A DNA stretch of 64,000 nucleotides from Escherichia coli (GTDB lineage: Bacteria > Pseudomonadota > Gammaproteobacteria > Enterobacterales > Enterobacteriaceae), in NCBI RefSeq assembly GCF_009931435.1, contig NZ_CP043414.1, one strand, 5' to 3'. Of this stretch, positions 55,627 through 58,621 are shown one piece after another. The number at the start of each line of letters is the position of its first letter. Positions within the stretch are counted from its first letter, which is position 1. Both the position numbers and the translations under genes were made by a program. The notes beneath the pieces were generated by a model, which did no database searches, was not told the origin of the DNA, and worked only from the letters and a program-made list of their open reading frames with translations.

Positions 55627-56532
55627 TTACCAGCGGCCAGACGCGCCGCCACCGCCAGAAGAACCGCCACCTCCGCTAAATCCGCCGCCACTTGAGCCGC
55701 CACCGGAAGAGGATGAAGAAGAACCTTTTCTTGAAGCTCTTTCTTTACCGAGCGTCTTGTATTTGGCTCGTAGCTTTTTATTAACGATAAGCCAAAAGAT
55801 AAGCAGCGCTACGATCGCAAAAGGCGTTAACATACCGCAGGCAACGATTAAATTCGTCCATGGTCCTGGCTCGGCAACATAGAGGAATACCATCCCGTAA
55901 ATTGCGGCAGTGAGAGTTATCCAGGGTAAATTCGACGGATCGGTAAAAACAATAAAATATGAAAGCACTGCCAGCAATATAATTACAGCAAGCGAAAATG
56001 GGATAGGGGGATTGATACTGTAATAATTCCCCCTGCCTTCCGGTAATTCACCATTCATCAGAAGTGCGCCGATATTTTCGCTTGCCAGTGTTAACCCCCC
56101 CATCAGGTCATCACTTTTGAAAGCAGGGATTAATATATCACGGATAATCTTTGCCGCTTGCAGGTCGGTAACCACCCCTTCCAGCCCATAGCCGACTTCT
56201 ATACGAACAGCATGATCTTCCCAGGCAACCAGAAGTAAAATGCCATCGTTTCGCTGCTTATCTCCCAGTTTCCAGCTATCAAAAACGCGTGTTGCATATT
56301 GTTCAATGGTATCGTCTCCGGTGGATGGCACTATTAATACGGCAACCTGTGCCCGTGTTTTTTGTGTAATATCCTGCAGCTGTTGTGTCAGTGATTGTTG
56401 TTCAGACGTGCTTAAGGTACCAGTAATATCGGTCACCTGTTGGCGCAGCTCCGGCACAGCAATTTGCTGGGCAAGCACAGGAAGGCACCATAAAGTGAGT
56501 AGAAAAAGGATTATACGCATAACGATCACCAA
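55627..56532 (-). CDS. ygcG: TPM-domain (TLP18.3/Psb32/MOLO-1 type) membrane protein, probable YgcG ortholog
   Basis: Signal peptide, TPM-like N-domain, TM segments, Gly/Ser-rich tail ending SGRW; position next to eno. Confidence 0.7.
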   Translation of the reverse strand: MVIVMRIILFLLTLWCLPVLAQQIAVPELRQQVTDITGTLSTSEQQSLTQQLQDITQKTRAQVAVLIVPSTGDDTIEQYATRVFDSWKLGDKQRNDGILLLVAWEDHAVRIEVGYGLEGVVTDLQAAKIIRDILIPAFKSDDLMGGLTLASENIGALLMNGELPEGRGNYYSINPPIPFSLAVIILLAVLSYFIVFTDPSNLPWITLTAAIYGMVFLYVAEPGPWTNLIVACGMLTPFAIVALLIFWLIVNKKLRAKYKTLGKERASRKGSSSSSSGGGSSGGGFSGGGGSSGGGGASGRW

Positions 56533-57674
56533 CGGTCGGATGAACCGCCACCGCCAGAAGAACCGCCGCCACCGCGGAAAGAGTTTTTCGACGAAGAACG
56601 AGAATGAGCATTACGATTCCCCGTTTTCTTGTTGCTTTTATGCCCTGATCCCAGTTTAAGATTGCCAGTAGATTTGGCCACAATGATCAGCAGAACGATG
56701 CCAGCAATGGTTATTGGGCCGATAAAATGATCAATTAGCCCAATAATTGTTGAGATGAACGCAATATCTTTATTACTGGCAAATACCAGGCACCATCCCA
56801 CAACAATTATCAGCAGCACGACAAACAATGAATTTCGTCCTGATTCACGAACCTGCGGAGCCTTCTTTTGTTTTTTCACTTTAGCGTTTTTATTTTGGGG
56901 GGCCAGCATCATAGGAAATGCGCGGCATATATTAAAAACTACCGCGAGACGCTGCCAGCAGATTGCTGCGAAAAATAAACTAAAACAAACGACCGATATC
57001 CGTCGAATGATGACATCGTTCTGAAAGCAGAAAAACCAGACCATAGGGGTAATCATCGATATCATCCATATGCCAGGCCCTGGATGGGTGGTAAATCGCC
57101 AGAGGACAACGATGGCAACGATCATCAGCAGTGTCCAGGCAAGACATGGCAGAGAGCGTTGCGGATTAGCAAACAGATGATTGGCTAAAGCATCCAAAGG
57201 GCTAAGATTCGCTTTTATATAGGTAAACTGTGCGATGCCTTCAATTCCCTGCGTTAACCCGGAGAAGAGATTATTTTTTTTGAATTCCGGTTGCATATGG
57301 TAATGAACAATTTGCGCAGCTTGTTCCGGTGGCAGCATCTCTTCCAGTCCATGCCCAATCTTCATTGACGCCAGCCCTTCCGGCCAAACGACGAGAATTA
57401 AGATACCTTCGCCGTACCGCTTCTCTCCAACAGGTTTCCAGTGATATAACCCGTAGCTTTGCGAGGCTGCAAGTTTAATGTCTTTACCCCCAGTGGTCGG
57501 CGTTACCAACACGGCCACCTGAAAGTGGTTTTGCTGCTCGAGAGTCTGTAATTGTTGAGTTAAAGCAGTTTGTTCTTCTGTCGTTAATGTCCCGGTTAAG
57601 TCAGTTACTGAAGGCAATTGTTCAGCGAATGCCTGGAAACCACATAGCATCAGAAGTAAGAGAAAAATACGCAT
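56526..57674 (-). CDS. TPM-domain membrane protein paralog 2 (multi-TM, Gly-rich C-terminus ending DRW)
   Basis: Signal peptide; divergent TPM-like domain; 4+ TM; tail GGGGSSGGGGSSDRW. Confidence 0.7.
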   Translation of the reverse strand: MRIFLLLLMLCGFQAFAEQLPSVTDLTGTLTTEEQTALTQQLQTLEQQNHFQVAVLVTPTTGGKDIKLAASQSYGLYHWKPVGEKRYGEGILILVVWPEGLASMKIGHGLEEMLPPEQAAQIVHYHMQPEFKKNNLFSGLTQGIEGIAQFTYIKANLSPLDALANHLFANPQRSLPCLAWTLLMIVAIVVLWRFTTHPGPGIWMISMITPMVWFFCFQNDVIIRRISVVCFSLFFAAICWQRLAVVFNICRAFPMMLAPQNKNAKVKKQKKAPQVRESGRNSLFVVLLIIVVGWCLVFASNKDIAFISTIIGLIDHFIGPITIAGIVLLIIVAKSTGNLKLGSGHKSNKKTGNRNAHSRSSSKNSFRGGGGSSGGGGSSDRW

Positions 57675-57688
57675 TTCAATTCCTTTTG

Positions 57689-58621
57689 TTACCAGCGCCC
57701 GGAGGCGCCACCGCCGCCAGATGAACCGCCGCCGCCGCTGAAATTATCATTGTCAAAAGAGGATGAAGAGGAAGATGACGACGATGATGAAGAACGCCAG
57801 GAGGCCGAGTTACTTCTTTCGTAGCGTGACGGTCGGTTGGCACTGCGCATCGAATCCCGAACCTTTTTGCCGAAGGGGGTAAAAGCGATAGCGACAGCCA
57901 GGAACGGTGTGGCGAAGCAGAGTAATGTTGCGAGTACTCCCCAGCTTCCGCCGAAACCTGCTATAGGTAAAACAAAGGCCAGTACAATAGCTGTGAAGCA
58001 AATTAGTCCCAGCGTTTTGAAATATCCTCTGGCGGAAATAAAGGTCAGTACTATTGCCCAGACTAACAAAGCCCACCAACCGCTAAAGGGCAAAGGGTGA
58101 TCGGTCGGTGTTATCGTTGCTAAATTATTCCCCGTCAGACGATTATCAATATCGCTTATTCCCTTTTGCAAGCCGCCAGCAAGGTCGCCATTTTTAAATG
58201 CCGGAATAATACTGTTGCGAATAATTTTCCCGGACTGCGCATCCGTAATAACGCCTTCCAGTCCGTAACCGATTTCAATACGCACGGTATGATCCTGCCA
58301 GGCGACTAACAGTAGAACGCCATCATCGCGGTCTTTATCACCCGGTTTCCAGCTATCGAATACCCGCGTAGCGTACTGCTCGATGGTTTCATCGCCCGTT
58401 GTTTCAACCACTAACACGACCAGTTGTGCGTGGCTTTTTTGCGTCAGCTCTTTAATCTGATTGGTCAAAGTATTTACTTCATCGTTCGTCAATTTACCGG
58501 TTAAGTCATTCACATACCTGGGTGATTCAGGCACTGGAATTTGTATGGCAAACACAGATGAACAAAAGAAAGCCATAAGGAAGATAAAATTTCGCACAGG
58601 ACTTCCTCGCTTAATGAGCAT
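57689..58621 (-). CDS. TPM-domain membrane protein paralog 3
   Basis: N-domain ~70% identical by eye to the 55627-56532 product (IEQYATRVFDSWK..LLLVAW.DH.VRIE.GYGLEGV); tail ..GGGGSSGGGGASGRW. Confidence 0.75.
   Translation of the reverse strand: MLIKRGSPVRNFIFLMAFFCSSVFAIQIPVPESPRYVNDLTGKLTNDEVNTLTNQIKELTQKSHAQLVVLVVETTGDETIEQYATRVFDSWKPGDKDRDDGVLLLVAWQDHTVRIEIGYGLEGVITDAQSGKIIRNSIIPAFKNGDLAGGLQKGISDIDNRLTGNNLATITPTDHPLPFSGWWALLVWAIVLTFISARGYFKTLGLICFTAIVLAFVLPIAGFGGSWGVLATLLCFATPFLAVAIAFTPFGKKVRDSMRSANRPSRYERSNSASWRSSSSSSSSSSSSFDNDNFSGGGGSSGGGGASGRW

Follow-up and report, generated by a model that had tools for sequence, protein, structure and literature searches.

A conserved C-terminal tail of YgcG-type TPM proteins that may dock on the TPM domain, and the topological puzzle that such docking raises

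BA41 of Bizionia argentinensis (PDB 5ANP) and YgcG of Escherichia coli K-12 are the closest described counterparts of the proteins considered here, with which they share a signal peptide, a TPM domain, one or more membrane helices and a low-complexity C-terminal region. In the BA41 paper this region is reportedly described only as a predicted cytoplasmic low-complexity region. We analyzed a stretch of 64,000 nucleotides from E. coli (contig NZ_CP043414.1; hereafter the window), in which three tandem genes encode proteins of this type, termed TPM1, TPM2 and TPM3, and concentrated on the Gly/Ser-rich tail with which all three end. The deposited BA41 sequence ends GGGGFGGGGASGGW, the same tail as in the window proteins, and K-12-type YgcG (P0115, 290 aa), whose window counterpart is TPM3, ends GGGGSSGGGGASGRW, the same tail as TPM3. 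The window proteins are ordinary members of this known, uncharacterised family; they differ from the BA41/YgcG set in occurring as three tandem copies, in having at least three membrane helices and Ser/Arg-rich rather than Gly/Phe-rich linkers, and in that no TPM-B, a short TPM protein encoded beside many of their relatives, was found at the window locus.

The TPM fold is common to the solved domains of BA41, Rhom172_1776, PG_0361, BA42, TLP18.3 and Psb32; it matches 5ANP with a template modelling score (TM-score) of 0.89, normalised by target length, at 33% identity, and also matches 7TBR and 2KW7. Psb32 and TLP18.3, which act in photosystem II repair and assembly, resemble the window proteins further in having a TPM domain in the lumen, the equivalent of the periplasm, followed by a membrane helix, but they are without the Gly-rich extension. 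Against the NCBIfam model for Psb32 (NF047379), whose cut-off is 160 bits, two of the window proteins reach 34.8 and 33.4 bits and TPM2 gives no match. In a preprint on Psb32, one sentence mentions an extension, rich in glycine, at the C-terminus of the non-photosynthetic homologues.

The tails of the three paralogs conform to the consensus F-[SR]-GGGG-SS-GGGG-[AS]-S-[GD]-R-W, with TPM1 ending ...NFSGGGGSSGGGGASGRW, TPM2 ...SFRGGGGSSGGGGSSDRW and TPM3 ...GFSGGGGSSGGGGASGRW. Translation of the open reading frames (ORFs) confirms these sequences as written in a first-pass annotation of this DNA, together with the basic Ser-rich linker that it had noted before each tail, and the tail codons lie within about 10 nt of the positions at which it had placed GGnGGn tracts. 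Compared in pairs, the paralogs show 38-61% identity over the TPM domain, 15-30% over the membrane and linker part, and 78-94% over the final 18 columns. The tails of TPM1 and TPM3 are identical at 17/17 residues while 9/17 codons differ synonymously, which points to purifying selection on the peptide and not to a recent exchange of DNA. Synonymous differences affect 6-9 of 17 tail codons in each pair of paralogs, which rules out recent gene conversion between them.

To avoid circularity the family was sampled with the TPM domain alone, which yielded 233 TPM-type proteins; about 180 of these carry the tail, and we use the name TPM-A for such YgcG-type TPM membrane proteins. A search with one genome per species gave 80 loci from alpha-, beta- and gammaproteobacteria, Bacteroidota, Spirochaetales, Nitrospinota and Nomurabacteria, in which nearly all TPM proteins adjacent to a LemA gene end in GGGG-x-[SF]-GGGG-A-S-G-x-W. 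In a logo of the last 17 residues of 178 distinct W-ending sequences, 12 positions are nearly invariant: F (61%), S (58%), G (90%), G (89%), G (97%), G (98%), x and S (49%) or F (48%) make up the first half, and G (91%), G (99%), G (99%), G (99%), A (88%), S (98%), G (91%), x and W the second, the final W being the criterion by which the sequences were chosen and not a measured frequency. The motif lies exactly at the C-terminus in 178/181 of the proteins that bear it; 177 of them close with W and one with Y. When a TPM profile was run against 1.84 billion representatives it matched 25,730 clusters at 50% identity, and 107 of the best 150 among these are W-terminal; many of the non-W proteins among the best 150 look like fragments or frameshifted reads.

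The reverse scan, in which metagenome contigs were searched with only the degenerate DNA pattern of the tail, gave 124 matches, 115 of them in TPM-domain ORFs; the remaining nine comprise four that are truncated at the end of a contig and five in short, fragment-like ORFs of 52-164 aa. Recovery of essentially TPM proteins only disposes of the idea that the tail is a portable module found on other families. Thus the tail is general within the TPM-A subfamily and restricted to it, and it is an ancestral mark of the whole YgcG-type TPM family rather than a convergence among three paralogs. The first-pass annotation had described a tail shared by otherwise divergent paralogs and had called for an alignment of TPM-family C-termini from other genomes; that alignment shows the motif across many phyla, so that conservation stands while the framing proves too narrow, as the entire YgcG-type family has the tail. 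Its further claim that the tail is functional and not a product of drift is supported by the near-invariance across phyla and by the high identity of the tails among the paralogs.

Several natural variants of the tail were seen. TPM2 of E. albertii NBRC 107761 (= DSM 17582; L004:3772-4980) ends ...ASGR and is missing the terminal Trp, and several TPM1 alleles (P0019-P0023; those with a named source are from E. albertii) are one GGGGSS unit shorter and end FSGGGASGRW, probably through slippage between GGN repeats. On the plus strand of the window (55622-55882), a Pro/Glu-rich ORF of 86 aa (PPPPEEPPPPLNPPP...) is the antisense reading of the Gly-rich tail of TPM3, and spurious antisense ORFs of the same type were found in 74/80 related loci. 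TPM3 residues 238-295 score 21.9 bits with PF25184 (YxzE-like putative bacteriocin), short of the cut-off of 40, and this resemblance is probably compositional.

The alignment of 252 distinct TPM-A sequences, with 17,766 column pairs, reveals that the tail co-varies with the TPM domain of the same protein (tail residues are numbered backward from the terminal Trp, the residue before it being -1). Tail position -9 and TPM family position 62 form the first-ranked pair of the 17,766 (z=15.8): with F at -9, position 62 is non-aromatic, mostly A, G or V, in 150/151 sequences, and with S at -9 it is aromatic in 94/96. Tail position -1 and family position 86 rank eighth (z=9.0); where -1 is basic, position 86 is non-basic in 80/85, and where -1 is non-basic, position 86 is K, R or H in 148/167. 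Basic residues occur at both sites in just 5/252 sequences and at neither in 19/252. Each of the two pairing rules is borne out within the domain-selected subset and again within the tail-selected one, and all three window paralogs obey them; TPM2, for instance, joins an aromatic residue at 62 to S at -9 and a non-basic residue at 86 to R at -1. When mapped on a neighbour-joining tree, the two pairs show 15 and 17 joint changes on a single branch, far more than the 87 control columns; 15 of 21-25 state changes share a branch, against at most 9 of 34 for the controls. The operon partners TPM-B and LemA, which share the phylogeny of TPM-A and served as controls, showed no coupling with the tail columns, the maximum being z=2.5 for TPM-B (159 pairs) and z=3.4 for LemA (165 pairs). 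The coupled tail sites are eight residues apart, and their counterparts are the beginning of the edge strand and the helix next to it, an arrangement in keeping with a docked antiparallel strand.

An AlphaFold2 model of TPM1, built from a 74-row alignment (302-aa numbering), contains a confident TPM domain, helices at 173-189, 193-212 and 218-238, and a linker with a predicted local distance difference test (pLDDT) score below 50. Residues 293-301, the last nine before the Trp, are predicted as a β-strand with pLDDT 80-97. Since all other strands of the model belong to the TPM domain, the tail strand is predicted to pair with the TPM sheet, and this placement together with the compensatory co-variation suggests that the tip contacts a TPM-A domain.

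In light of these observations, we propose, with a probability of roughly 60%, that the tip of the tail docks as a returning β-strand on the TPM domain, either its own or that of an identical neighbour, and is not a tag for another protein. The tail would then consist of a flexible tether, rich in the small residues Gly and Ser, and of a tip that does not vary, GGGG-[AS]-S-[GD]-x-W, and whose carboxyl end is free; the tip would add a β-strand to the TPM domain of the same protein or of an identical neighbour in an oligomer. This strand (residues -9 to -1) could lie antiparallel to the edge strand formed by family positions 86-92 (in TPM1, TVRIEIGYG), with the side chain at -9 packing against the helix at positions 58-62, a single basic group being supplied by either tail -1 or domain position 86, and the terminal Trp capping the docking site. 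Close packing of the backbones and a slim tether might both require the glycine runs. The register of the strand, the roles of the Trp and of the charge, and the outcome of docking, which might be to lock or gate the TPM domain or to link subunits, are steps that we infer. The mechanism has an analogue in donor-strand complementation and other returning strands, in which a distant segment or a neighbouring subunit lends the strand that completes a β-sheet; the size of the interface side chains is compensated there, as in the swap between -9 and 62. However, the likeness is one of mechanism and not of homology, the TPM-A strand being Gly-rich, at the extreme C-terminus and parted from the sheet by membrane helices.

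Several considerations weigh against this proposal. The pairing partner of the tail was deduced from the secondary-structure string and the co-varying positions rather than from model coordinates, and AlphaFold2 draws on the same co-variation, so that the two lines of evidence are not fully independent. The 5ANP entry lists 277 residues ending GGGGASGGW, of which only 140-145 are modelled, and no docked tail is seen in it, although the crystallised construct may not match the listed sequence. Above all, the predicted topology separates the two, with a cytoplasmic tail and a periplasmic TPM domain, the first because an odd number of helices is followed by a K/R cluster after the last of them (the positive-inside rule), the second because a Sec-type signal peptide precedes the TPM domain, as it does in every TPM-A member examined. 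Most members have an odd number of helices between domain and tail (mode 3; 145/182 odd by a crude count), and the mean K+R content is 2.3 in loop 1, 0.2 in loop 2 and 2.5 directly after the last helix. Hydrophobic content after the domain clusters around two main values, those of one helix and of three, and clear single-helix forms are common; these show canonical signal peptides and an Arg cluster right behind the helix, for which reason an even number of helices was rejected as a way out. TPM2 appears to add helices and yet keep their number odd (five by eye, seven by a crude hydrophobicity count), and in proteins with two TPM domains both precede the helices, so that these proteins leave the membrane side unsettled.

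Three ways of reconciling the contact with this topology can be envisaged: the Gly/Ser-rich linker may re-cross the membrane along a protein-lined path, one of the hydrophobic segments may not span the membrane, or the contact between tail and domain may belong to another state of the protein. We regard it as doubtful that the contact is real in the mature protein with the linker carrying the C-terminus back across the cytoplasmic membrane, via or alongside its own helices or an oligomer. Gly makes up 46% and Ser 16% of the linker, in which F/W/Y and R are scattered; its length, about 9-14 up to 73 residues with a median of 37, is compatible with re-crossing but does not discriminate. Were re-crossing to occur, the two halves of a split domain would both be periplasmic in a protein with an odd number of helices, threading through a narrow passage would account for the linker being so strictly bound to small residues, and docking and undocking of the strand could report the state of the membrane to the LemA/TPM module. 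Single-helix TPM-A proteins (for example L149, L123, L119 and L075) often have a short hydrophobic patch between the Arg cluster and the Gly-rich run, frequently with Pro (LPWIIPM, MMFWGMPFLF, GGFIPISIRW, VFVPY), which might bear on how the tail reaches the TPM domain.

Only two neighbours of the tail-bearing TPM genes are conserved: an upstream LemA gene, present in 70/80 genome loci and 101/124 metagenome loci, and downstream TPM-B, which has no signal peptide and ends in a motif of its own, NELPDxPxxL. With sensitive profiles TPM-B accompanies 163/190 tail-bearing loci, and all three genes are found together in 150/190. At the window locus all three TPM genes have signal peptides and Gly-rich tails, and the locus is thus a variant operon with three TPM-A copies and no TPM-B. 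Conservation of the tail is complete in Escherichia and Klebsiella loci, which showed no TPM-B, and also in those of Pseudomonas, in which LemA and TPM-B both went undetected. A lipoprotein box is present in the window LemA and in the one other proteobacterial LemA read. Among side features of these partners, the C-terminal motif of TPM-B reads in full HFP...NELPDxPxxL (example L029:2759-3257), and AlphaFold2 docks the end of TPM-B as a short strand; TPM-B of Bacteroidota and Spirochaetes has a two-helix membrane hairpin inserted; and 94/107 LemA proteins bear a [AP]PxVxF motif near the C-terminus.

The predicted cytoplasmic position of the tail, and the frequent company of TPM-B, which lacks a signal peptide, raise the alternative that the tail is a cytoplasmic docking peptide for another partner, either TPM-B or a housekeeping protein, and couples the periplasmic LemA/TPM module to the cytoplasm. 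A disordered linker with an invariant tip also resembles known tip-docking tails. The bacterial single-stranded DNA-binding protein, for example, has a low-complexity linker of variable length and a short invariant tip, whose last residue is aromatic with its carboxylate free, and through this tip it binds many other proteins; the TPM-A tail has the same build, yet its co-variation points to its own domain. Docking in trans on cytoplasmic TPM-B would have solved the topological problem, but two tests agree, as weak negative evidence, in giving it no support: the AlphaFold2 model of a chimera in which TPM-B is fused to the tail of its operon partner (37 paired rows) leaves the tail undocked (pLDDT 44-52), whereas the own C-terminus of TPM-B forms a strand, and the tail reaches at most z=3.4 with TPM-B or LemA against 15.8 and 9.0 with its own TPM domain. 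Contact with LemA was rejected in the absence of co-variation with the tail. Given also that the tail stays intact in the genera without detected TPM-B and that no further gene is conserved in the neighbourhood (80 genome loci), we consider a cytoplasmic partner unlikely, and the first-pass suggestion that the tail binds a separate partner found no support.

The composition of the linker and its low AlphaFold2 confidence would also suit a low-complexity element without any specific contact, be it an entropic spacer, a Gly tract on which AAA+ proteases such as FtsH have a poor hold, or a self-associating, phase-separating Gly/aromatic region by which the proteins would be clustered. Glycine-rich tracts are known to impair the grip of AAA+ unfoldases on their substrates. 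Such an element, however, can account neither for invariance at specific positions (A at -4, S at -3, G at -2 and W as the last residue) nor for two compensatory pairs with the TPM domain, and we judge it quite improbable. Still less can be said for the sorting tag of the first-pass annotation, that is, a sorting, secretion or processing signal read by a dedicated enzyme or transporter, which is very improbable. The strictly C-terminal position behind membrane helices and a basic cluster gives the tail a superficial likeness to C-terminal sorting domains such as LPXTG, PEP-CTERM and GlyGly-CTERM. But the order of elements is the reverse of sortase- and exosortase-type signals (motif, helix, basic tail), no NCBIfam sorting-signal model matched, and the 80 genome loci have no sortase, exosortase, rhombosortase, peptidase or transporter as a conserved neighbour; moreover, the tail marks this one cargo family, the TPM proteins, as the reverse scan attests, whereas sorting signals mark many. 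Docking of the tip on a TPM-A domain is thus the reading that we prefer.

Table 1. Coordinates in the window of the tails, of the co-varying positions with the predicted docking surface, and of the genes that encode them
Feature	Position	Strand	Remarks
TPM1 tail, last 17 codons, FSGGGGSSGGGGASGRW	57692-57742	minus	stop codon 57689-57691
TPM2 tail, last 17 codons, FRGGGGSSGGGGSSDRW	56529-56579	minus	
TPM3 tail, last 17 codons, FSGGGGSSGGGGASGRW	55630-55680	minus	
TPM1 predicted docking surface	58286-58360	minus	co-variation with tail -9 and -1
TPM1 F88 (family position 62)	codon 58358-58360	minus	within helix IEQYATRVFDSW
TPM1 T112 (family position 86)	codon 58286-58288	minus	first residue of edge strand TVRIEIGYG
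TPM2 Y74 (family position 62)	57453-57455	minus	
TPM2 L101 (family position 86)	57372-57374	minus	
TPM3 F84 (family position 62)	56281-56283	minus	
TPM3 A108 (family position 86)	56209-56211	minus	
LemA-family gene	58611-59213	minus	first gene of the operon; PF04011 E=2.1e-48; N-terminal lipoprotein box LSGC
TPM1 coding sequence, 310 aa	57689-58621	minus	PF04536 E=2.7e-40, 137.7 bits
TPM2 coding sequence, 382 aa	56526-57674	minus	PF04536 E=1.5e-22, 80.3 bits; most divergent paralog
TPM3 ORF, 301 aa	55627-56532; likely ATG at 56520	minus	PF04536 E=1e-38, 132.6 bits

The locus lies on the Escherichia chromosome in the order pyrG, eno, LemA/TPM locus, queE and CRISPR array, and the interval from eno to queE consists of four closely packed minus-strand genes, the LemA-family gene followed by TPM1, TPM2 and TPM3 (Table 1), with the stop codon of lemA overlapping the start of TPM1. 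All three TPM paralogs score well above the PF04536 gathering cut-off of 22.1 bits. TPM1 is laid out, from N to C, as a Sec-type signal peptide, the TPM domain, three membrane helices, a basic/Ser-rich linker and the tail; TPM2 carries extra membrane helices. Judged by eye, the signal peptides of the three proteins end at ...SVFA/IQ, ...QAFA/EQ and ...PVLA/QQ. Of 5,426 complete E. coli genomes, 1,102 have the four-gene form (query coverage of at least 80%), and most of the others keep ygcG alone. K-12-type yqcG (L002:4014-4154; 46 aa; annotated as "cell envelope stress response protein") aligns with window 59150-59330, spanning the 5' end of lemA, signal-peptide codons included, and the region upstream; from this alignment it looks like a remnant left after deletion of lemA, TPM1 and TPM2.

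The CRISPR array (window 60398-61216 and 61723-61808) comprises 14 perfect copies of an E. coli type I-E-like repeat, spaced at 61 bp in all cases but one, with two degenerate copies further along, and it explains the periodic short ORFs predicted in the window. A role in defence, as the adjoining array might suggest, was rejected, as no PADLOC family matched any of the four proteins. Elsewhere in the window, positions 4001-8000 have a low G+C content (0.37-0.42 against about 0.50 in the remainder) and were possibly acquired horizontally.

Two genomes (L001:5192-6124 and L003:3424-4095, which correspond to window 57689-58621) have TPM1 flagged by RefSeq as a truncated pseudogene ("incomplete; missing C-terminus"). 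In the first of these, whose locus is 99.9% identical to that of the window, TPM1 has an intact ORF of 310 aa, and TPM3 is truly frameshifted; the flag on TPM1 is probably an artefact of annotation, for which the low-complexity tail may be responsible.

In two laboratory-evolution studies of Cupriavidus, the function of YgcG is stated to be unknown, and both report one residue of the YgcG-family protein of C. necator (locus L036) as switching between G253 and W253; this residue may lie in the Gly-rich linker. A limited literature search, covering ygcG, BA41, DUF477, and TPM with LemA or glycine-rich, returned passing mentions only, with no description of docking or of co-varying pairs. What is new here is the evidence for docking of the tail tip on the TPM domain and the topological puzzle that results.

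The TPM-domain family is very large, as the number of matching clusters attests, and its E. coli members adjoin eno and queE. The tail is the sharpest sequence signature of this family, and the accessible literature has treated it as an uninteresting low-complexity region. Two compensating residue pairs tie it to the TPM domain and give a handle by which the proposed docking can be tested. The clash with the predicted topology has a bearing of its own: either the standard rules mislead for the whole family, or the linker acts in an unusual way at the membrane.

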